Shown here: piece by piece, positions 2,068-54,073 of the stretch
Layout: the number at the start of each line of letters is the position of its first letter
Numbering within the stretch: the stretch's first letter is position 1
NCBI GenBank assembly: GCA_001818695.1
Contig: MHJG01000025.1
Span: forward strand, 8,373 to 66,509
DNA from: Candidatus Harrisonbacteria bacterium RIFCSPHIGHO2_02_FULL_42_16
GTDB taxonomy: Bacteria > Patescibacteriota > Minisyncoccia > UBA6257 > 02-FULL-45-10c
DNA: 58,137 bases
Direction: 5' to 3'
Position numbers and translations under genes: made by a program
Notes under the pieces: model-generated
What the model was told of the DNA's origin: nothing
The model's input: only the letters and a program-made list of their open reading frames with translations
Database searches by the model: none

Positions 2068-2955
2068 TTAAATTTTCAATCCGCGGAGTGCCTTCACCCT
2101 CTCCTCTACCGGCGGATGAGTCATGAAAAGTTTATGAAAAAATGAAATTTGTTTTTTATTGTCAAACGGGTCATCAAACCATAAATGCGAAGTGGTGTTA
2201 TTAGCAACGTTAAGCGGCGTAGGGTCAGAAGAAATTTTTATCAGCGCGCTCGCCAGCGCGTCCGGATAACGGGTAAGCAAAGCTCCTGAAGCATCCGCTA
2301 AAAATTCCCGTTTTCTGGAAATCGCCAATTGCATCAGCATTCCTCCGATTGGCGCCAAAACAGCCAATAATATGCCGATTAATAAGATTGCCGGATGCAT
2401 TTTATCGTTTCTGCGTCTGCCCCAGAACATAGAACGCATAAAAAAATCGGAAGCGATAGAAATAAAACCTACTAACACTACCGCCATAGTGGAGACCAGC
2501 ATATCCCAATTGCCGATATGCGAAAGTTCGTGCGCGATAACTCCTTCCAATTCTGAACGGTCCAGCCGTTCTAAAAGTCCGGCAGTTACCGCCACTACCG
2601 CGTGTTCCGGATTTCGACCGGTGGCAAAAGCATTTGGCGCCGGTTCATTTATAATATAAATTTTCGGCGTCGGCAGACCGGCGGTGATGGATAAATTTTC
2701 CACGATATTATAAAGTTCTCTGGCGTTTTCTTTGGAAATCGGCCGAGCGTCCGCCATTTTCAAGACAATTTTATCCGAATACCAATAACTGGTTAAACTC
2801 ATTCCAACGCTAAAAAGCGCAACTACATACAAAATTGCCGGGTCGCCGTAAATCTGGGTAAAAGTCCAGCCAATGCCGATCGCCGCAATCAAAAAAAGCG
2901 TGAAAATCAGCCAAGTTTTCCGGATATTGGAATCCTTGTGAGTGTAAAGGTTCAT
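2068..2955 (-). CDS. htpX: M48-family zinc metalloprotease HtpX
   Basis: HEXXH motif (AHELSHIGNWD), several TM segments and 295 aa, all typical of HtpX. Confidence 0.9.
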   Translation of the reverse strand: MNLYTHKDSNIRKTWLIFTLFLIAAIGIGWTFTQIYGDPAILYVVALFSVGMSLTSYWYSDKIVLKMADARPISKENARELYNIVENLSITAGLPTPKIYIINEPAPNAFATGRNPEHAVVAVTAGLLERLDRSELEGVIAHELSHIGNWDMLVSTMAVVLVGFISIASDFFMRSMFWGRRRNDKMHPAILLIGILLAVLAPIGGMLMQLAISRKREFLADASGALLTRYPDALASALIKISSDPTPLNVANNTTSHLWFDDPFDNKKQISFFHKLFMTHPPVEERVKALRGLKI

Positions 2956-2967
2956 AAATTTAAGCGA

Positions 2968-3522
2968 TTAAAATTTTACTTTCACGGGCTGTTTTTCGGA
3001 TTCTGATTCTACTTCAAAAAATTTCTGCTCCGTAAATCCGAACGGCTTGGCAAGAAGATTCACGGGAAATGAATGTACCGCAGTATTCATCGCCATTACC
3101 ATTGCATTATAAAACCGGCGCGATGCCTGAATTTTATTTTCCGTGTCCGCCAGTTCTCTTTGTAAATCCAAAAAATTGGCATTGGCTTTCAAGTCCGGAT
3201 AATTTTCCGACACCGCAAATAAGGTCTTTAAAGTATTGGAAAGCTGATTTTCCGCCGCCTCCCTTTCCAACGGACTGCCGCCTCCGGAGACCGCCGTACG
3301 GGCATTAGTCACATTTTCCAGCACACCCTTTTCATGAGCCATGTATCCTTTTACGGTTTCCACTAAATTAGGGATTAAGTCATATCTTCTTTTAAGCTGG
3401 ACATCCACATCGGAAAGCGACTCTTTGACGCGATAACGCAAGCGCACTAATCGGTTATAGGTAAAAACTGCCCAAAGCGCCACTGCGCCGACGGCAATAT
3501 ATAAAAAAGTTAATAATTCCAT
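2968..3522 (-). CDS. lemA: LemA family membrane protein
   Basis: N-terminal TM helix followed by LemA-like sequence (RRYDLIPNLVETVKGY..., NKIQASRRFYN). Sits immediately upstream of htpX, a common pairing. Confidence 0.85.
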   Translation of the reverse strand: MELLTFLYIAVGAVALWAVFTYNRLVRLRYRVKESLSDVDVQLKRRYDLIPNLVETVKGYMAHEKGVLENVTNARTAVSGGGSPLEREAAENQLSNTLKTLFAVSENYPDLKANANFLDLQRELADTENKIQASRRFYNAMVMAMNTAVHSFPVNLLAKPFGFTEQKFFEVESESEKQPVKVKF

Positions 3523-10484: not shown

Positions 10485-11531
10485 CTATTCTTCTTGCGCT
10501 GCTTCCGGCCGTTCCAAAAGCTCCGGTTCAATTTCCATTGCCTCACCGGTTATTTTTAAGACATCCTTGTCAATTTTTCCCAGTTCTTTATAAGCGCTGT
10601 TATACATACTGACTGAAGTGCCAAGATGCGTTCCTAATTTCTGCATATAGGTTTCGTAACTGGATAAGTGCTTGCCGAGCATTTCCACCCGTTTACGGAT
10701 TTCTTTGGCGGATTCTTCAATCTGCAAAGCTTTCAAGCCCTGCAAAACTGTCTGTAAATACGCCAAAAAAGAAGTCGGCGAAACAATAATCACATGCCGA
10801 TCTCTAAAAGCGTATTGAATCAAATCCTGCGTGTCGGATTTCACCGTCCCGACTTTATTTATCAGCAAATCGTAATAAATCGCTTCCGCCGGAATAAACA
10901 TAAAAGCAAAGTCCATTGTCCCCTCTTCCGGTTTCACATATTTTGAGGTCTCATCAATTCGGTTTTTTAAATCCTGCTTAAATGATTTTTCCAGTTCTAT
11001 TTTTGAATCCTCGTCGCGAGCATCCAAAATCCGGTTATAATTTTCCAAACTGAATTTGGAATCAATCGGAATGACTTTGTCCTGAACAAAAATCACCGCA
11101 TCCACGATGGTACCGTCTTTAAATGGATACTGCATCTGATACCGTCCCGGCGGCAAAACATTTTTCAAAAGCGTTTCCAAATAATATTCACCAAGCACGC
11201 CTCGCTGTTTGGGATTTTTCAAAATATCTTGCAAACTCTGCAATTGGTCCGCGAAACTCACTACCTGCTTATTGGTCTCATCCAATTTAGTAAGCTGTTG
11301 GGTAACATCCCTGATAATTTTCGCGCTTTCGCTGAATTGCCTCTGCATTATTCGGCTGGATTCTCCAAGCTTCGCGTCCACCGCCCGCGCTACTTCGCTA
11401 ACCTGATTTTGAAGCATTAAAAAAGAACGGTCATCAATTTTATGCTCCGTTCTTTGATTTTTTAAATACAAAAAAAGCAAAAAAAATCCGGCAATTATCG
11501 CTCCTAAAATAATTATTGAAGACAAATCCAT
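10485..11531 (-). CDS. rmuC: DNA recombination protein RmuC
   Basis: N-terminal TM and coiled coil, then the RmuC nuclease-like core (DAVIFVQDKVIPIDSKFSLENY). Confidence 0.85.
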   Translation of the reverse strand: MDLSSIIILGAIIAGFFLLFLYLKNQRTEHKIDDRSFLMLQNQVSEVARAVDAKLGESSRIMQRQFSESAKIIRDVTQQLTKLDETNKQVVSFADQLQSLQDILKNPKQRGVLGEYYLETLLKNVLPPGRYQMQYPFKDGTIVDAVIFVQDKVIPIDSKFSLENYNRILDARDEDSKIELEKSFKQDLKNRIDETSKYVKPEEGTMDFAFMFIPAEAIYYDLLINKVGTVKSDTQDLIQYAFRDRHVIIVSPTSFLAYLQTVLQGLKALQIEESAKEIRKRVEMLGKHLSSYETYMQKLGTHLGTSVSMYNSAYKELGKIDKDVLKITGEAMEIEPELLERPEAAQEE

Positions 11532-20765: not shown

Positions 20766-20849
20766 TGCCGGGGGTGGGATTCGAACCCACATGGTCTTGC
20801 GACCGCTGACTCCTGAAGCCAGTGCGTCTGCCAGTTCCGCCACCTCGGC
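20766..20849 (-). tRNA. tRNA-Leu (anticodon CAG), no encoded CCA
   Basis: The complement reads GCCGAGGTGGCGGAACTGGCAGAC...CTGGC-TTCAGGA-GTCAG...long variable arm...GGGTTCGAATCCCAC-CCCCGGC-A. There is one A/C mismatch in the acceptor stem. Confidence 0.85.
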
Positions 20850-32078: not shown

Positions 32079-32107
32079 AGTATAGGGCAACAATAGATTA
32101 ATGTCAA
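32079..32107 (-). promoter_or_regulatory. Sigma-70 consensus promoter TTGACA-N17-TATACT
   Basis: The complement of 32102..32107 is TTGACA (overlapping the polX stop) and of 32079..32084 is TATACT. Part of the shared 60-nt cassette. Confidence 0.7.
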
Positions 32108-33876
32108 TCCTTTAAAAATTTCAACATCTTCTCCAATGGCCAAGCATTGATTATATCTCCGCGTTCCACCCAGCCGCGACGCGCCTGCGCAATCCCATAT
32201 TCCAACCATTCAAAATGAAAAATAGAATGGGCATCGGAATCAATAGACATTTTTACTCCTTGCCCAACGCATTTTCTGATATACTCGTCTTTTAAATCAG
32301 CGCGGTCGGAAGCGTTGATTTCCAAAACTGTTTTGGTTTTTTTAGCGTGGCGAACCAATTCCTCCACATCAACATCATACGGCTCCCGTTTATTCAATAT
32401 CCTGCCGGTAGGATGGAAAATAATATCCACATTCGGATTAGACATCGCCCGCTTAATCCGTTCGGTCTGGTCTTTGCGCGACAAATTAAAAACCGAATGA
32501 ACCGACGCGCCCGCTATCTCGCATTTAGATAAAATACTGTCCGGCAAATCCATGGTGCCGTCTTTTAAAATATCACACTCAGTACCCTTAAGAACTTTGA
32601 ATTTTAAACCTTTAACTTTTAACTTGCGGTTGACTTCGTCAATCTCCTGCCATTGCTTTTTAATCCGTTTTTCATCCAGCCCGTTCGTTATGGTTAAACG
32701 CTTGGTATGGTCGGTAATGGCAATATATTCCAAACCGCGCTCCATTGCCGCTCTTGCCATTTCCTCAATGGAATTCGCGCCGTCTGTCCAATTGGTCTGA
32801 ATCTGTAAATCGCCTTTTAAGTCATCGTAACCAACTAAATTTGGAAGTTTTCCGACAATAGACGCTTCAATTTCTCCTGTCATTTCCCGCAATTCCGGCT
32901 CTATATACTGAAGCCCCAGTTTTTCATACAATTCCTCTTCAGTACGCCCGGCAATAAACTTGTCTCTTATCGCTTGTCGCTTGTCGCTTTTAAAAAGTCC
33001 GTACTCGTTTAGCTTCCATCCTTTTTTAATCGCTATTTCCCGCAAAGCAATATTATGCTCCTTAGAACCGGTAAAATAATTCAAAGCGGCGCCGTAGGAT
33101 TCCGCCGGTACCACCCGCACATCCACATCCAAACCGTTTTTTAATTTTACCGCCGATTTAGTTTCTCCACGCGCGAAAACCCTCGCCACTTCCGGCATAT
33201 TTACAAAATAGTCCATTATTTTACCAGCAGTAGCTTTAGCGGAGGCGGGCTGGTTTTCTTTAATAATCACTAAAATATCCGCGTCGCCGATAGTTTCTTT
33301 CCGCCGCCTCACCGAACCGGCGGCTACGGCTTTTTCCACGCCCTTAATGGCGCGAAACCGCGATTCAATTTCCCGAATCTTGGGCATTGCCAGCCCCAAA
33401 ATAAACCGGCCACCGGATTTTTTTAAAAATTCAATTCCCTTTAAGATATTTTCTTCGCTTTTAACTCCAAATCCTTTAAGATTACGGATTCGACCGGAAG
33501 CAATGGCCTTTTCCAAATCCCTTAATCCGCGAATTCCCAATTTTTCATAAAGCGTTTTAAGGGTCTTAGAACCCAACCCCTCAATACCCTGAAAATCCCC
33601 GAGCCGTATCGGAGTTTTTTTTCTTAGGCCATCGTAATAGCGCGAATGTCCGGTCTTAAGCAATTCTTCAACTTTTTCCGCGATAGACGCGCCAACGCCC
33701 GGAATCGCTTCCAGCGCTTTTAGCCCGCCTTTCGTATATATATCTTTTACTTCCTCGCTTAATTCCGATACCGTTTCCGCCACTTTTTCATAAGCTCTTG
33801 GCTTAAAAGGCACAGCATCCATATCCAAATAAATGCTGATTTCATTTAAAATTTTGGCGATTTCTTGATTGTCCAT
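32104..33876 (-). CDS. polX: Family X DNA polymerase with a C-terminal PHP domain (PolX)
   Basis: HhH motifs, the Pol-beta nucleotidyltransferase motif GSVRRRKETIGDADILV and a PHP domain (IAITDHTKRL, SIDSDAH). Confidence 0.9.
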   Translation of the reverse strand: MDNQEIAKILNEISIYLDMDAVPFKPRAYEKVAETVSELSEEVKDIYTKGGLKALEAIPGVGASIAEKVEELLKTGHSRYYDGLRKKTPIRLGDFQGIEGLGSKTLKTLYEKLGIRGLRDLEKAIASGRIRNLKGFGVKSEENILKGIEFLKKSGGRFILGLAMPKIREIESRFRAIKGVEKAVAAGSVRRRKETIGDADILVIIKENQPASAKATAGKIMDYFVNMPEVARVFARGETKSAVKLKNGLDVDVRVVPAESYGAALNYFTGSKEHNIALREIAIKKGWKLNEYGLFKSDKRQAIRDKFIAGRTEEELYEKLGLQYIEPELREMTGEIEASIVGKLPNLVGYDDLKGDLQIQTNWTDGANSIEEMARAAMERGLEYIAITDHTKRLTITNGLDEKRIKKQWQEIDEVNRKLKVKGLKFKVLKGTECDILKDGTMDLPDSILSKCEIAGASVHSVFNLSRKDQTERIKRAMSNPNVDIIFHPTGRILNKREPYDVDVEELVRHAKKTKTVLEINASDRADLKDEYIRKCVGQGVKMSIDSDAHSIFHFEWLEYGIAQARRGWVERGDIINAWPLEKMLKFLKD

Positions 33877-34025
33877 CCCTCACCCTTAAAGGATTGCGAA
33901 AGCAAATACAATGCTCCGCTGATTAATACTTCGACTGATTTTCATACACTCACTATAAATACACATAAATTTTTATAAATATCTATCCTTTAAGGGTGAG
34001 GGATCAATGCTTCAAGGGTGAGGGA
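33876..34025. repeat. Inverted-repeat element: 19-nt arms at 33876..33894 and 33985..34003 (19/19 complementary, 90-nt loop), plus a third partial arm at 34011..34025
   Basis: tccctcacccttaaaggat / atcctttaagggtgaggga, read directly. The left arm includes the first base of the polX ATG. Confidence 0.9.
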
Positions 34026-34685
34026 CTATTTTAGCCCTGCCCGTATATGGTCCACCAATTGAGGGGCGGAAACGGTTTTCTTGGGCAAAATAAGGTCCGG
34101 AACAAATAAAAGCAGTCCGGCGCTGGAGAGCGCCAATAATCCCACTGATAAAAAAACCAATTTGAATCCGAACATACTGGCTAAAGAAGCGCCCAGAAAA
34201 CCGGCCAAACCGATGCCAAAGCTCACAGAACTGCTGGAAATCGCCCAATCAAAAGCAGTGTGTTTTTTATCCAAATGCCTGGAAAAAATCGCCGACCATG
34301 CCGGAATATAAAACGAAAAACCAATGGCTTTCAAAAATTGGATAATATAAACATGCCAGATAGCCGTCGCCAGCATCAAACTGAAAGCGGAAACGCCGAT
34401 TATCATTAAGCCGAAAATCAAAGCGTAAAAATCGTCCCGCTCCCCGTGCGTTTTATCCAAAAACAAAGAAATCGGAATTTGCAGGAACCCCTTAACAAAC
34501 CAATAAATCGTGGCTAAAAATCCGATAGTAATCAGATTCGCCCCCGCCACATTATTTATCAAAAATACCGCAAAAATCGGGTCCAATAATCCCCAGCCGG
34601 ACCACATAATCAAATCACCGATGATAAAATACCGGACAATCTTATTGAGCGGAGGAATAAAATCCAGATTGAATTTAATAATCAT
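34026..34685 (-). CDS. Six-TM, half-size MFS-like membrane protein (possibly truncated)
   Basis: Six hydrophobic helices with an MFS motif-A-like loop (LDKTHGERDD). At 219 aa it is about half a normal MFS transporter. Its stop abuts the repeat element. Confidence 0.55.
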   Translation of the reverse strand: MIIKFNLDFIPPLNKIVRYFIIGDLIMWSGWGLLDPIFAVFLINNVAGANLITIGFLATIYWFVKGFLQIPISLFLDKTHGERDDFYALIFGLMIIGVSAFSLMLATAIWHVYIIQFLKAIGFSFYIPAWSAIFSRHLDKKHTAFDWAISSSSVSFGIGLAGFLGASLASMFGFKLVFLSVGLLALSSAGLLLFVPDLILPKKTVSAPQLVDHIRAGLK

Positions 34686-44614: not shown

Positions 44615-45499
44615 CTATTTACGCTTACTTAATGTTAAAAGCGGACTGGCAATAAAGATAGACGAATAAGCGCCGGTAATAGTGCCGACAAGTATCAACA
44701 AAGTGAAGTGCTTCAGTGATTCGGCGCCCAAAAGATAAATCGAGACCAAAACAATCACCAAAGTTAAAGAGGTATTTATAGAACGAGCCATGGTTTGATT
44801 AACGCTGTCGTTGACGATTTCTTCAAGTTTTTCCTTATTTTTAGAATTCATAAGATTTTCCCGAATTCGGTCAAAAACCACAATCGTATCGTGCACGGAA
44901 AAACCCATAATAACCAGCAGAGCCACCAAAAAATTAATATCCGCCTCCACTCCCAGCCACCATCCTAAAAACGAAAGTGTTCCAGCCGGAATCAAAACAT
45001 CATGGAAAAGCGTAACTAAAGTAACCCAGCCGTAAAGCCAAGAACTGACCGGATAAGAGACCTTTCTAAAAGCAAAAGCCACATATAAAGATATGCCGCT
45101 CAACACCATCAAAAAGGCGGTTACCGCTTTATTGCGCAATTCCTTGCCGACTGCCGGTCCGATGCTGGCAAAACTCAATTCTTCAAATTCGCCTAATTGT
45201 TCCCCGAATTGCCTGCCCAATTGCTGATGCTTCTCTTCGGTAATTTCTTTTAAACTGATAAAGAATTCGTTGTCGGTACTGCCGTTCCTGATAAGCGGGT
45301 TTTCAAAATTTTCTTTCCGCAAGATTTCTTGAAGAGCGCCGATACTGGCGCTTTTTGACTGGAATTTTATTTGCCATAAAGTCCCGCCGGAAAAATCAAT
45401 GCCGGAACGGAATCCAAAAACAGCCATACTGATAATACTGGCCGCAATTAATAAACCGGAAAACGCGAAGTAATAATTTTTATATTTTAATATATTCAT
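44615..45499 (-). CDS. secF: Protein-export membrane protein SecF
   Basis: GIDFSGGTLWQ motif and six TM helices. Confidence 0.9.
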   Translation of the reverse strand: MNILKYKNYYFAFSGLLIAASIISMAVFGFRSGIDFSGGTLWQIKFQSKSASIGALQEILRKENFENPLIRNGSTDNEFFISLKEITEEKHQQLGRQFGEQLGEFEELSFASIGPAVGKELRNKAVTAFLMVLSGISLYVAFAFRKVSYPVSSWLYGWVTLVTLFHDVLIPAGTLSFLGWWLGVEADINFLVALLVIMGFSVHDTIVVFDRIRENLMNSKNKEKLEEIVNDSVNQTMARSINTSLTLVIVLVSIYLLGAESLKHFTLLILVGTITGAYSSIFIASPLLTLSKRK

Positions 45500-45634
45500 C
45501 CCTCACCATTCAAAGATAAATTCGCTTCGCGACTGAGAAGCGTTGTTATTGGCTGTATTTGATATCTTGTTTGAATTCATATTTTTTTAATTTATTCTTA
45601 AATCCTATTTAATCAATCTTTGAAGGGTGAGGGA
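45499..45634. repeat. Second copy of the inverted-repeat element: arms at 45499..45517 and 45616..45634 (18/19 complementary, 98-nt loop)
   Basis: tccctcaccattcaaagat / atctttgaagggtgaggga. The left arm starts at the A of the secF ATG. The right arm is the last 19 coding nt of secD. Confidence 0.9.
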
Positions 45635-50186: not shown

Positions 50187-50235
50187 ATTTTAAATCTCCA
50201 ACAATTTTAATCTCCTCCGGGGTGAGGGCGTAGAG

Positions 50236-51195
50236 TTATATTGATGCTGAATAGGGTAGGGACTTTATATAATCTTCCATGAATTTCAAATCGGGATTCC
50301 CAATTTTATCTACTGGAAGTTTAATTTTTTCAAAAGGCAACCTCATTAGCCGAACCTGCCTACCATAGGCATATTTGTGTTTTAATTTGCTTAATATGGC
50401 CACTAAAAATAAAGAGTTGAGTTTATTTAATTCAAAATTAATTGGGACAAGGGTATGGATATTATCATCGCTAAAGTATTTATCGTTATGATAAAAAACA
50501 TTAAAAAACATATCTATCGTTATTTTATTTTCAAATAATTTCTTTTTGTCCTTAAAGTCCTCAAAAGAGATATGCTCTGATACGCCATTATTGTTTTCTC
50601 CGGCAGTTATAAGCGGAACATCGCCCCCTATTCTATCTAACTTCGTCAATCTTTCTCCTTTTTCAAAAGTAAATAAATCGCCCAAACTAAACCATCCCCA
50701 CTTTCGATCAAAAAGAGGGGGTTTTTTATTTGACGCTGATTTTATATTTAATTCATCAATTCTTAATTTTTGAAATCTATCAGGTACTTTCGCAGGTATA
50801 AATAAATCTCTAATGGTCTTATTAGCTTGTCTATTGTAACTATAGCGATACCTGTTTCTTTTTATACAAATTGTATAATAAATCATTTCTCGTTCTGTCA
50901 TTTTTCTTTTGGGCGTAAGATAAAATAAGTCTCGGCCACTGTAATATTCATATGGCTGTAAAAATGTCGCCAAAACCGACCCGCCACCCGCAACAGTTAG
51001 CGTTCCAGAAGAAATCGGTTTTACATCGTTATTTTTTTCTACAAAAGCGGAAACTCCGTTATTATTTTCGGTCCGCGACACAAAGCAAATAGCCTCTTTT
51101 GATCTTTGAGGAACTTCATTTAAATTTATGAGTTCGAGATTCACGCCATATTTAACCTCAAATAAATCTGAAACTTTTACAAGATTCATATTCAT
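50236..51195 (-). CDS. Restriction-modification specificity (S) subunit-like protein with two target-recognition halves
   Basis: Two repeats of the TRD-leading pattern (VKVSDLFEVKYGVN... and WFSLGDLFTFEKGERL...). 4-nt overlap with the upstream RM gene. Confidence 0.7.
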   Translation of the reverse strand: MNMNLVKVSDLFEVKYGVNLELINLNEVPQRSKEAICFVSRTENNNGVSAFVEKNNDVKPISSGTLTVAGGGSVLATFLQPYEYYSGRDLFYLTPKRKMTEREMIYYTICIKRNRYRYSYNRQANKTIRDLFIPAKVPDRFQKLRIDELNIKSASNKKPPLFDRKWGWFSLGDLFTFEKGERLTKLDRIGGDVPLITAGENNNGVSEHISFEDFKDKKKLFENKITIDMFFNVFYHNDKYFSDDNIHTLVPINFELNKLNSLFLVAILSKLKHKYAYGRQVRLMRLPFEKIKLPVDKIGNPDLKFMEDYIKSLPYSASI

Positions 51196-53033
51196 TCATT
51201 TAAAATTTTAAATACCCAATATTTTTTTAACTCTTTTTCAAATTCTTTTTCAGTAATATCAGAGTAGTCGGTTTCGAGATATGCTTCCGCGCACCACTCG
51301 TCATTTATGCCAACTTTTTTTCTTATACTAATTCCCGGCGCAACTTTTCTATTAGTAAAATCAGTAAGCCATTTTTCTTTAATTTTGGGCCACTTATCAG
51401 TCGAAATTCTTCCTTGAATTTTATCTTTTCTAAATCCATCATCTTTCCAATATCCGAACCAGCTCTCGTGATGCGGGTCGCTGTCATGCGGAACATGGGC
51501 AGTAAAAACCATAATACAAGGAACTACGCCAACCGGATAAAATAAATCATTTGGCATGCTCATCACCGCTTCAAGACGATGTTCTTTCAAAAGTTGTTCG
51601 CGCAATGGATGCGGCGCGATAGCAAGCGACATCGGCACAATTACAATTCCCGTGGCATTTTTTTGCAACGCATTAAGTATTTGAATGACAAAGTTCCATT
51701 CATGCAAATCCTCGCCTTTTTGCGAATAGGGCGGGTTAATAAATCCAGCCGTTGCTTTATTTTTAATTTGATTAAAAATTTCTTCATCAAAACAGGAGCC
51801 CTGATACAGGTTTGTTTTGCCATCTCCGCGCAAAATCATATTAGACACCGCCAAGGCGAACATGGACGGTTCTTGCTCAACTCCAATAAGAGAATTTTCC
51901 AAAATTTTCATTCTTTCTTGCTCGCTCACGCCAGTGACCATTTTTTTCATAGCTGAAATAAGAAAACCGGCCGTACCGCAACAAGTATCTAAAACTACGG
52001 AATTTTTATTCAACTTCGCCAAATCGGCGAAAAGTTCGGTGATATGTTTAGGAGTAAGCACAATACCCAGCCCCTGCGCATCGCCGCCGGTATAACGGAT
52101 AAATTCGCCGTAAAAATTGCCAATTATGTCAAAATCAAAATGGTCTTGAGTAAAAGGCTCCATTTTTGAATTTATCTCGCGAACAATATGCGCTAAAGGC
52201 GATTCGTTCCTTTTTTTATCTTTCTTTTGCAATTCCGGATGATATTCAATAAAACTGAAGGCATTTATAATCGCCTGTTTCTTTTCTTCCTGATTTACGC
52301 CGAGCCGAGCTTTATTTATAATATCTTTCAGCGCTTGAAAGGTTTTCTTTGCCAGCTCCCCCTCCTCATATTTCGGATAGGCAACCTTAAAACCTTTTTC
52401 CATAAGGGCAATAAGCACGCCGCTCACGAGAAGAGGCATCTGCGCCACTGTAATTTTTCCGTAATCACGCAAATAATTGTGAAGATCTCTGGAAAAACGG
52501 CTTAAATCGTTTTTTCTCGCGGCCGCTAAATTTTCATCGTATTGCGCGTAACGGATATAATCTTTCCAGACGACAATTTCTTTTACTAAAGCCGGCTTTT
52601 CTGATGTATCCTTGAGCCGTGCCGCGGCTTGAGCGCCCTTAGGATGTAAAAAGGTGTCAATTTTTAATTCTTTTTCAGTTTGACCGCTAACCGCGATGGC
52701 GATTACATTGTATTCTTTGGATAAGCAGGAGGCATATAGTAAAACTCCGTCCACCGCGCGGCTTGCGTATTGATTTTGTTTTAACGATTCATGATATTTT
52801 ATATCCGCCTTGCACTCAATAACAATTAAATATTCCCTGTCTTCTGAATTAGAAATTAAAAATTCCGGCTTGCCCCTGCCTTTTCCGAGTTTACTTTTAC
52901 TTAATAAAAGTTTTTTTATGAAAGGATTTTGAATTATTTGTTCCTCGACTAAGATATTACTATTTTTGTAGTAACCAAAAGATTCTAATTTCTTTCTTAC
53001 TAAAGATTCGGTTATTTTTTCATTTTTACTCAT
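51192..53033 (-). CDS. Fused restriction endonuclease-like N-terminal domain plus gamma-class N6-adenine DNA methyltransferase (BcgI-A-like / Type IIB-IIG architecture)
   Basis: The N-terminus has GKPEFLISNSEDREYLIVIECKAD (E...ExK nuclease-core-like, HSDR_N-like). The centre has motif I (VLDTCCGTAGFL) and motif IV (FINPPYS). 613 aa. Confidence 0.75.
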   Translation of the reverse strand: MSKNEKITESLVRKKLESFGYYKNSNILVEEQIIQNPFIKKLLLSKSKLGKGRGKPEFLISNSEDREYLIVIECKADIKYHESLKQNQYASRAVDGVLLYASCLSKEYNVIAIAVSGQTEKELKIDTFLHPKGAQAAARLKDTSEKPALVKEIVVWKDYIRYAQYDENLAAARKNDLSRFSRDLHNYLRDYGKITVAQMPLLVSGVLIALMEKGFKVAYPKYEEGELAKKTFQALKDIINKARLGVNQEEKKQAIINAFSFIEYHPELQKKDKKRNESPLAHIVREINSKMEPFTQDHFDFDIIGNFYGEFIRYTGGDAQGLGIVLTPKHITELFADLAKLNKNSVVLDTCCGTAGFLISAMKKMVTGVSEQERMKILENSLIGVEQEPSMFALAVSNMILRGDGKTNLYQGSCFDEEIFNQIKNKATAGFINPPYSQKGEDLHEWNFVIQILNALQKNATGIVIVPMSLAIAPHPLREQLLKEHRLEAVMSMPNDLFYPVGVVPCIMVFTAHVPHDSDPHHESWFGYWKDDGFRKDKIQGRISTDKWPKIKEKWLTDFTNRKVAPGISIRKKVGINDEWCAEAYLETDYSDITEKEFEKELKKYWVFKILNE

Positions 53034-53999: not shown

Positions 54000-54073
54000 G
54001 CCCCCATAGCTCAATGGTAGAGCAGCTGCCTTTTAAGCAGTTGATCTTGGTTCGATTCCAAGTGGGGGCACCA
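54000..54073 (+). tRNA. tRNA-Lys (anticodon UUU), CCA encoded
   Basis: GCCCCCA-TA-GCTC-AATGGTA-GAGC-A-GCTGC-CTTTTAA-GCAGT-TGAT-CTTGG-TTCGATT-CCAAG-TGGGGGC-A-CCA. Preceded by TTGATT-N17-TAAAAT. Confidence 0.92.

Follow-up and report, generated by a model that had tools for sequence, protein, structure and literature searches.

The Correia (NEMIS) elements of Neisseria and the ERIC (IRU) elements of enterobacteria are non-autonomous, multicopy, intergenic repeats of ~100–160 bp with terminal inverted repeats (TIRs), which are co-transcribed with their neighbors and form long hairpins. They duplicate TA and sit anywhere in intergenic DNA. We have analyzed a stretch of 58,137 nucleotides from Candidatus Harrisonbacteria bacterium RIFCSPHIGHO2_02_FULL_42_16 (contig MHJG01000025.1; the whole stretch is called the 58-kb window below), which matches contigs of the Rifle groundwater metagenome-assembled genome (MAG) GCA_001817975.1. 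The window contains two copies of an element of the same general kind, one abutting the start of polX and the other joining secD to secF. This Patescibacteria element is unrelated to Correia and ERIC in sequence and host, and no named match was found in Rfam. Furthermore, its ends coincide with stop and start codons, the target duplication, where kept, is ATGRR, and its partner that bears an open reading frame (ORF) encodes a GIY-YIG nuclease instead of a DDE transposase. We are confident that both window features are copies of this mobile family. Our reading is that they are ORF-less, non-autonomous members of a new GIY-YIG-associated superfamily of transposons and miniature inverted-repeat transposable elements (MITEs) that targets start codons. 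By sequence, enzyme or flanks, the element is not Correia, ERIC, REP, PATE or attC.

Other described systems share further aspects of this arrangement. REPIN-RAYT systems also consist of dispersed inverted-repeat doublets that form hairpins, with the same repeats on either side of a small nuclease gene, and distinct repeat families are matched to distinct enzyme lineages. However, their enzyme is of the HUH/Y1 type, compared to GIY-YIG here, where no HUH protein was seen. REP units are palindromic, whereas the single arms of the Patescibacteria element (TCCCTCACCCTTNNNNNNN) are not self-complementary and form a stem only as a pair. Unlike in REPIN-RAYT, the nuclease cassette is multicopy between a stop and a start codon, and target duplications occur. 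IS200/IS605 and PATE elements are likewise tiny and orientation-specific, with hairpin ends, many copies without duplication and short non-autonomous derivatives. In contrast to these, TnpA (HUH) and TnpB are absent here, the ends are mutual inverted repeats, and a subset of family 1 (that of the window copies) as well as two sister families make 5–6-bp duplications.

The free-standing seg and mobE genes of T4-like phages are GIY-YIG genes between conserved genes, whose presence varies at homologous junctions and whose expression is limited by hairpins that sequester the ribosome-binding site and by stop/start overlap (PMC2988022). Seg proteins differ in their size (200–250 aa) and DNA-binding domains, and lack TIRs, ORF-less derivatives and target duplication. 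The protein described here is a bare 85-aa catalytic domain. The element is found at many non-homologous junctions of a single genome, which argues that homing alone is insufficient. The best sequence and structure matches of this domain are Slx1 and UPF0213 (COG2827), with conserved catalytic Tyr, Arg, His and Glu residues. Slx1 cuts branched and stem-loop DNA and, by analogy, a similar action on the 20-bp palindrome is plausible. Cellular Slx1/UPF0213 proteins are not known to be mobile or to have inverted repeats at their flanks.

The polX and secD/secF copies

The 19-mer TCCCTCACCCTTAAAGGAT matches the 58-kb window five times, compared to 0.01 expected matches. Two matches with 0 mismatches (33876–33894 on the + strand and 33985–34003 on the − strand) form the pair at the polX start, a third with 2 mismatches is located at 34007–34025 (−), and the other two (45499–45517 and 45616–45634) belong to the secD/secF copy. 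Beyond these two loci, no additional element copy was found in the window; a 1-mismatch core match at 50221 was rejected as an element. The copies are 128 and 136 bp long and contain no transposase gene, only ORFs of 25–26 codons. The genes around both are all on the − strand (Table 1).

A preliminary description of this DNA reported a perfect 19/19-bp hairpin over the polX start. This hairpin is confirmed and extended to 20/20 bp (33875–33894 / 33985–34004, with a 90-nt loop) by a repeat finder. In the mRNA sense, the 3′ arm ends in ...AAGGGUGAGGGAU. The A of the polX AUG is the final base of this arm, and both the A and U of the codon (33876–33874) are inside the helix. The arm contains a Shine-Dalgarno (SD)-like AAGGGUGA, which resembles the consensus SD (AAGGAGGUGA) minus two bases, and in-frame UAA and UGA codons (..CUU UAA GGG UGA GGG AUG). 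As described earlier, it is the sole SD-like stretch ahead of polX. This carries little weight, since 38 of the 54 long ORFs of the window have no SD-like motif. The UAA terminates a small ORF with a second in-frame AUG at 33945, and the polX AUG follows in the same frame, three codons on (GGG UGA GGG).

Folding of the units as RNA, which had been proposed, gave −63.7 kcal/mol (z = −7.9) for the polX unit and −41.8 kcal/mol (z = −6.3) for the secF unit, whose arms are 87% complementary over 30 nt. The polX stem also forms with DNA parameters for single-stranded DNA (z = −6.9). Promoter and terminator scans of both window copies, including a promoter-like match in the polX-copy loop, were at chance level, and the subterminal hairpin of the secF copy was flagged as a weak terminator-like site only. 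At the gathering threshold, Rfam matched nothing in the whole window besides three tRNAs, and a permissive search of the locus gave only chance-level matches to microRNAs and small nuclear RNAs. RNA sequencing runs were sought for the window and for two related operons, and none turned up.

The secD/secF junction was described earlier as having the same arms and layout. The arms do recur there, but the secD stop lies past the 5′ arm instead of ahead of the element. secD reads through this arm (..TFINPSPFKD*) and stops at a TGA directly past it (45615–45613). The last seven residues of SecD (NPSPFKD) and the stop are encoded by the element (45613–45634), which has become part of a protein. In a relative (L129), SecD ends in ..TFMKSN* (codons TTT ATG AAA ..), followed by a 21-nt spacer. 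The flanks of the window copy, ATTAA and ATGAA, match at 4 of 5 positions, and there are hints of a deletion between two ATGAA 5-mers, which would yield the secD/secF layout of the window. The short blocks reported to be shared by the loops of the two copies were found again: TCAGTCG..GAAG is part of the subterminal hairpin and TATGAA is the start of the small ORF. The hairpin motif of the secF copy recurs in many copies of other lineages.

A third, partial arm was also described at the polX junction, and its presence at 34007–34025 is upheld. This solo arm adjoins the TAG stop (34028–34026) of the preceding major facilitator superfamily (MFS)-like ORF, and a UGA (34006–34004) comes after it.

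Table 1. Coordinates of the element copies and genes discussed in the text
Feature	Positions	Strand	Remarks
polX; 590 aa, polymerase beta-like domains and PHP	32104..33876	−	native ATG flush with 3′ arm
polX 3′ (start-proximal) arm, mRNA-sense AUCCUUUAAGGGUGAGGGA	33876..33894	−	repeat finder, 20 nt, 100% complementary
Small ORF in polX copy (MCIYSECMKISRSINQRSIVFAFAIL*)	33886..33966	−	
polX-copy interior/loop; 90 nt, A+T-rich	33895..33984	−	
polX 5′ arm UCCCUCACCCUUAAAGGAU, perfect complement of 3′ arm	33985..34003	−	A34004 and U33875 make helix 20 bp
Solo outer 5′ arm UCCCUCACCCUUGAAGCAU, without own partner	34007..34025	−	21 nt, 90% complementary to 3′ arm
Half-size MFS-like ORF; 219 aa, Pfam MFS_1	34026..34685	−	native TAG stop
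secF; 294 aa	44615..45499	−	downstream of secD/secF copy
secD/secF 3′ arm AUCUUUGAAUGGUGAGGGA	45499..45517	−	A of secF AUG is its final base
Small ORF in secF copy (MNSNKISNTANNNASQSRSEFIFEW*)	45503..45580	−	ends at arm UGA, 3 nt ahead of secF AUG
Subterminal hairpin CGCUUC-UCAGUCGC-GAAGCG	45523..45542	−	just 5′ of 3′ arm
secD/secF 5′ arm	45616..45634	−	translated as SecD end (..NPSPFKD)
secD; 414 aa	45613..46857	−	upstream; C-terminal tail and stop from element
Three tRNA genes	1899–1985, 20766–20849, 54000–54070		

Distribution, junction geometry and mobility

Scanning of one genome for each species with a degenerate single-arm pattern identified arms paired 130–170 nt apart in Patescibacteria only, and a paired-arm scan identified at least 111 stretches. 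Together, the scans give at least 135 elements, enriched at start codons and almost exclusively from Patescibacteria (including Saccharibacteria, Jorgensen-, Lipton-, Brenner-, Wolfe-, Doudna- and Berkelbacteria, Paceibacterota and Minisyncoccia). The short copies are 120–170 bp long with 19–20-bp inverted repeats at their ends. Each arm consists of 12 invariant outer nucleotides (TCCCTCACCCTT / AAGGGTGAGGGA), whose constancy is partly imposed by the search pattern, and 7 variable, co-varying inner nucleotides, which the pattern leaves unconstrained. There are 71 distinct forms of the inner 7-mer in 131 elements. The stem is exactly 19 bp long, with Watson-Crick pairing of 85–93% at positions 13–19 and 17–24% from position 20 onward, and shuffling of the partners reduces pairing from 6.8 to 4.4 of 10. 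A flanking A before and T after the element lengthen the palindrome in 100 of the 131. No paired arms were found in IMG/VR viral contigs, and thus nothing points to carriage by phages. Full-text literature searches by arm sequence, by GIY-YIG combined with MITE, TIR or target-site duplication, and by Patescibacteria repeats found no description of the element; a match to AAGGGTGAGGGA in a paper on E. coli Sib RNA is a primer coincidence.

A few paired matches in Arthrobacter, Brevibacterium and Bdellovibrionales MAGs (TCCCTCACCATTTTT) were set aside, as they lack the stop/start geometry described below. Those of Arthrobacter and Brevibacterium (L135, L137, L142, L157, L178, L187 and L206) are G+C-rich palindromes with a TCCCTCACC..GGTGAGGGA core flanked by CGC..GCG, and are probably an unrelated repeat family. 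Nested mini-hairpins of arm-like sequence (for example, CCCCTCACCCTTTAAAATTAAAGGGTGAGGGG) are present in some Saccharibacteria copies (L058, 2010–2045; L215, 3233–3262 and 5125–5155; L069, 2240–2285), one of which is followed by a terminator-like T-run on the antisense strand.

Junction geometry was counted on 118 Patescibacteria-type copies, for which the chance expectation is ~6–7% per side. Seventy copies are bounded by a stop codon on one side and an ATG on the other, 24 by an ATG only and 11 by a stop only, while 3 have divergent ATGs on both sides and 1 has stops on both. An ATG is thus formed at one end at least in 97 of the 118 copies, and in 89 of 131 an ORF of 60 aa or more begins at the terminal A and the TG that follows it. 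The downstream genes encode ribosomal proteins (L2, S19, L18, S11, S4, L17 and L13), ATP-synthase subunits (a, delta and gamma), MraZ, MraY, GlyRS, UvrC and a secretion ATPase. All are essential and lie within operons, and since ribosomal proteins and ATP synthase are among them, their expression must be preserved. In MAG H41-bin049 (L139, 7249–7385; L217, 713–849; L203, 290–426; L129, 6641–6779), the right arm adjoins TTGAC or TTGAT, a −35-like hexamer, without an ATG; in L129, the element has an intrinsic terminator on one side and the promoter region of secD on the other.

Although the arms are symmetric, the direction of the interior is fixed relative to the downstream gene, as seen from the frame bias of a small ORF and the placement of the subterminal hairpin. 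With the ATG end placed on the right, the arm on that side always reads GGG TGA GGG ATG. An ATG-initiated small ORF of at least 15 codons ends in the right arm in that frame in 47 of 88 copies, compared to 5 and 1 in the other sense frames and 5, 2 and 1 in the antisense frames. Many copies share the small hairpin (CGCTTC..GTCGCGAAGCG) just 5′ of the right arm.

Orthologous junctions contain the element in some genomes and lack it in others, which speaks for its mobility. The polX of the window is closest to that of Candidatus Harrisonbacteria (77% identity). The order of a ClpB-like gene, the half-size MFS gene and polX is conserved in three relatives, whose polX orthologues are 72–77% identical to that of the window and lack a family-1 element. 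The hairpin is therefore not a conserved feature of polX leaders. One junction reads AAATAA-T-ATG, with a 1-nt spacer (L247), and in another the spacer is 260 nt long and free of arms (L243). The third (L246, with a 76%-identical polX) has a spacer of ~690 nt that contains a gene on the opposite strand as well as a 106-bp element from another arm family (2896–3001, TCCCGTTAGAAAATT..AATTTTCTAAACGGGA), which is flush with the polX ATG and has the duplication ATGGA. The polX start codon was thus struck twice independently, in two lineages. The MFS ORFs of these relatives have 209, 219 and 223 residues and end in ..GIK* or ..GLK*, compared to ..AGLK* with a native stop in the window. As these element-free genes are equal in length and C-terminus, the MFS-like ORF has not been truncated by the element, contrary to what had been suggested.

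Five further pairs of filled and empty orthologous junctions were identified. The element replaces the whole native spacer, from native stop to native ATG, as in ACATAA-AAAT-ATGAAA compared to ACATAA[element]ATGAAG, with flanking identity of 92–95%. Three copies that are identical at 131 of 132 positions occupy three junctions of one contig, all of them flush. Logan metagenome contigs (X6, X9, X13 and X16) begin or end at the arms (window 33872–33901 and 33985–34032), with a depth of 75 at the X9 arm compared to ~8–10 in the flanks (~7x), and other Logan contigs join the polX-copy arms to interiors of 94 nt or 249 nt. Assemblies break at the repeat, which is abundant in the community. Among the metagenome contigs aligned to the locus, none showed an empty polX allele.

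Target-site duplications had been suggested as something to look for, and were found in part of the copies. In family 3 (see below), a perfect ATGRR duplication of 5 bp (ATGAA, ATGAG or ATGGA) flanks 17 of 21 copies, and its right copy is the start codon of the downstream gene. In family 1, a 4–5-bp duplication is present in 13 of 97 copies, compared to 5.6 in shuffles, and includes ATGGG twice, ATGGA and ATGAG, each identical to its own partner. Most family-1 copies, including that at polX, have none. Family 3 and part of family 1 thus show insertion at ATGRR with a stagger of 5 bp. Family-1 copies also precede ATGCT, ATGTT, ATGCC and others, and are not confined to ATGRR. The earlier proposal of a MITE-like element that lands at gene starts is thus supported by >130 copies, by the ATG formed in 97 of 118, by filled and empty junctions and by the duplications of a subset. 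The proposal that it brings its own SD and ATG holds for the SD-like AAGGGTGA, supplied by the arm together with an in-frame TGA, but the ATG belongs to the target gene, as the ATGRR duplications indicate. A 2-bp AT duplication or a TAATG target was also considered; either fits the filled sites, whereas the orthologous empty sites have spacers of 1–690 nt.

GIY-YIG cassettes and three arm families

Three elements of ~290 bp carry an ORF of 85–88 aa, and a search for relatives of this protein yielded 15 loci. The full-length family-1 form is 287–301 bp long, and its sole gene encodes a GIY-YIG nuclease between the same arms. All 11 closest homologues (65–100% identical, from several classes) are inside family-1 arms. 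The ORF starts within ~19 nt (mostly 1–8) past the left arm and has its stop in the right arm or next to it, and most of the 11 cassettes are again in the stop/ATG position. The solo arm at polX (..GAAGCAT) is identical to the left arm of one such cassette (L238), which suggests that a cassette once occupied the polX junction; the solo arm is probably its remnant. The 58-kb window itself contains no GIY-YIG gene. More than 100 close GIY-YIG clusters are present in metagenomes, many of them on very short contigs.

The protein matches Pfam GIY-YIG (PF01541) with E values of 1e-14 to 1e-16, above the curated cut-off. Tyr16, Arg26 and Glu62 are invariant, and Tyr5, His30 and Glu50 are nearly so. 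The predicted model (predicted local distance difference test score of 95.5) consists of the catalytic domain and one C-terminal helix, and a separate DNA-binding domain is absent. In structure, UPF0213 and the Slx1 nuclease domain match it best, with root-mean-square deviations of 1.4–2.3 Å. UvrC and I-TevI are also matched, but UPF0213 and Slx1 are closer.

More distant nucleases are located between arms of other sequence. Family 2 is represented by a 53%-identical GIY-YIG protein (L239, 1463–1772) between the arms CCCCACACCTTT..AAAGGTGTGGGG, with short copies of ~130 bp in 31 further stretches (L248–L278). Several of these have 6-bp duplications (GTTTGC, GTAAAC and GTTATC), without the stop/start geometry. 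Family 3, with the arms TCCCGTTAGAG..CTCTAACGGGA or TCCCGTTAG..CTAACGGGA, has one cassette with a 48%-identical protein (L240, 1488–1761) and another in L249 (164–443), and is represented by 21 copies across the fetched loci, for example at 2439–2544 of L100 and 1140–1244 of L140. Families 1 and 3 reside together in the same genomes. That each of the three arm families has a GIY-YIG lineage of its own is what would be expected for an enzyme and the ends on which it acts. Based on this association in sequence, we infer that the GIY-YIG nuclease is the mobility enzyme of the family.

Alternative explanations and possible passage of ribosomes

The explanation as a whole, including the role of the GIY-YIG nuclease and translational coupling across the element, has our moderate confidence. 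More tentatively, the 266–301-bp arm–GIY-YIG–arm unit may be an autonomous transposon, in which the nuclease would act on its own ends, probably as a hairpin or cruciform, insertion would occur at ATGRR, and stop, SD-like and relay-ORF signals would be in register for the passage of ribosomes across the stem, allowing the unit and its ORF-less derivatives to colonize essential operons.

Several observations weigh against our main explanation. A comparison of the GIY-YIG cassettes with the short copies by nhmmer found no interior homology, so the relation between autonomous and non-autonomous forms is drawn only from arms, position and polarity. The idea that short copies are internal deletions of the cassette, which arose from a few look-alike 5′ ends, is kept as a possibility only. 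Nor is a hydrolytic nuclease of 85 aa that lacks a DNA-binding domain an obvious transposase. In most family-1 copies, the duplication is missing and the native spacer wholly lost, and simple cut-and-paste does not explain such flush junctions. They may be due to microhomology deletion from the stop codon to the left copy of the duplication, to gene conversion among old copies or to a second mode of insertion. The notion that flush copies are old and trimmed, and duplication-bearing ones young, is weakened by the three flush copies identical at 131 of 132 positions. Stem mismatches in the mRNA sense are symmetric (22 of the G.U type and 23 of the A.C type), so that conservation of the stem looks to be at the level of DNA, i.e. 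of TIRs, rather than due to selection on mRNA. The conserved pairing looks like that which TIRs, a DNA hairpin or a cruciform would give. Finally, two points bear on translation: at polX, the solo arm and UGA (22 nt) separate the upstream stop from the stem, and the small ORFs have no obvious SD.

The competitor that survives best, although we consider it unlikely, is a plain MITE moved in trans by a conventional transposase, with the GIY-YIG gene as a passenger or an independent selfish gene and the hairpin without a role in expression. It would account for the lack of interior homology between ORF-bearing and short forms and for a window with two copies and no GIY-YIG gene; TIRs with 5–6-bp target duplications are a hallmark of DDE-type transposition, and symmetric stem mismatches are as TIRs predict. 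However, none of the fetched loci showed a longer element in which these arms enclose another ORF, whereas the GIY-YIG subfamily is inside the arms in 11 of 11 cases and three arm families have their own relatives of the nuclease. Nor would a neutral, randomly oriented insertion be expected to have a polar interior and a small ORF in one specific frame.

An ancient, vertically inherited host module for mRNA processing, mRNA stability or translation control, similar to REP or ERIC and subject to conversion driven by the GIY-YIG nuclease, is improbable. Presence and absence differ between close relatives (92–95% flanking identity), the 5-bp duplications prove de novo insertion, and occupancy is patchy and varies among genomes. 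Conversion of old copies would give near-identical copies that are flush too, as found, and the conserved polarity of the interior would also fit a host module. Also in its favor, the same ribosomal-operon junctions are filled in distant lineages with differing inner arms, and compensatory variation maintains the stem pairing. The lack of a G.U excess in the mRNA sense speaks against it.

The hairpin was originally considered as a possible regulator of the polX start, acting as a thermosensor or RNase III site or by sequestering the start. That a very stable helix covers the SD-like stretch as well as the A and U of the start codon invites this explanation. The three polX orthologues without the element, the identical architecture ahead of >90 unrelated genes, the lack of a G.U excess and the absence of any matching Rfam family make a gene-specific riboregulator very improbable. 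attC-like sites of an integron-type cassette array, which imperfect ~130-bp palindromes between ORFs superficially resemble (VCR/attC), are extremely improbable, as the flanks are syntenic housekeeping genes (ribosomal, ATP synthase, secDF) instead of cassettes, there is no integrase and no core GTTRRRY at the ends, and the copies are spread over the genome with target duplications.

Returning to the GIY-YIG-associated transposon, the most plausible consequence of the element, as inferred from its register, is translational coupling. The element would be co-transcribed with its neighbors and its arms would fold into a stem that has the stop codon at its 5′ foot and the AUG at its 3′ foot. Translation of the downstream cistron would then proceed via termination-reinitiation, with the upstream ribosome melting the 5′ arm. 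Comparable hairpins and overlaps of stop and start occur at the T4 endonuclease genes mentioned above (PMC2988022). At secD/secF, the ribosome would translate the entire 5′ arm and stop just after it, which would free the 3′ arm. Alternatively, a ribosome on the small relay ORF would enter the 3′ arm and stop at UAA or UGA, 3–9 nt ahead of the AUG. At polX, a terminating ribosome would miss the paired arm, and the relay-ORF route must be invoked; the small ORF stops 9 nt ahead of the AUG, and this route is likely. The element would thus be a selfish insertion that is nearly neutral for operon expression, and not a polX regulator.

As SD-like motifs are scarce in the window, internal cistrons such as polX and secF probably depend on coupling. 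Many of the long ORFs have a TATAAT-like box 6–9 nt before the ATG, and the sequence suggests that leaderless mRNAs are widespread in this organism. Examples of the ORFs concerned, all on the − strand, are those with starts at 11531, 15594, 17117, 25517, 30881, 44584, 46857, 53033 and 56743. A few kb from secD, the region 50236–53033 and its neighbors encode a type I restriction-modification methylase and specificity-subunit pair, a LexA-like repressor and a DUF3800 gene.

In practice, the arms break metagenome assemblies, and the elements can add element-encoded protein tails, as in SecD, and may mislead gene callers and searches for motifs or riboswitches in Patescibacteria. The invariant 12-mer is a convenient marker of the group. 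The stem also raises the question of reinitiation or “shunting” across a stable stem in bacteria. If the GIY-YIG nuclease is the mobility enzyme, it would add a class to the prokaryotic transposases (DDE, HUH, serine, tyrosine, DEDD and Cas1), and the ~290-bp unit would be the smallest autonomous element or transposon. The copies described here show mobile DNA living in essential operons of streamlined genomes, where it supplies stop, SD-like and restart signals in register.

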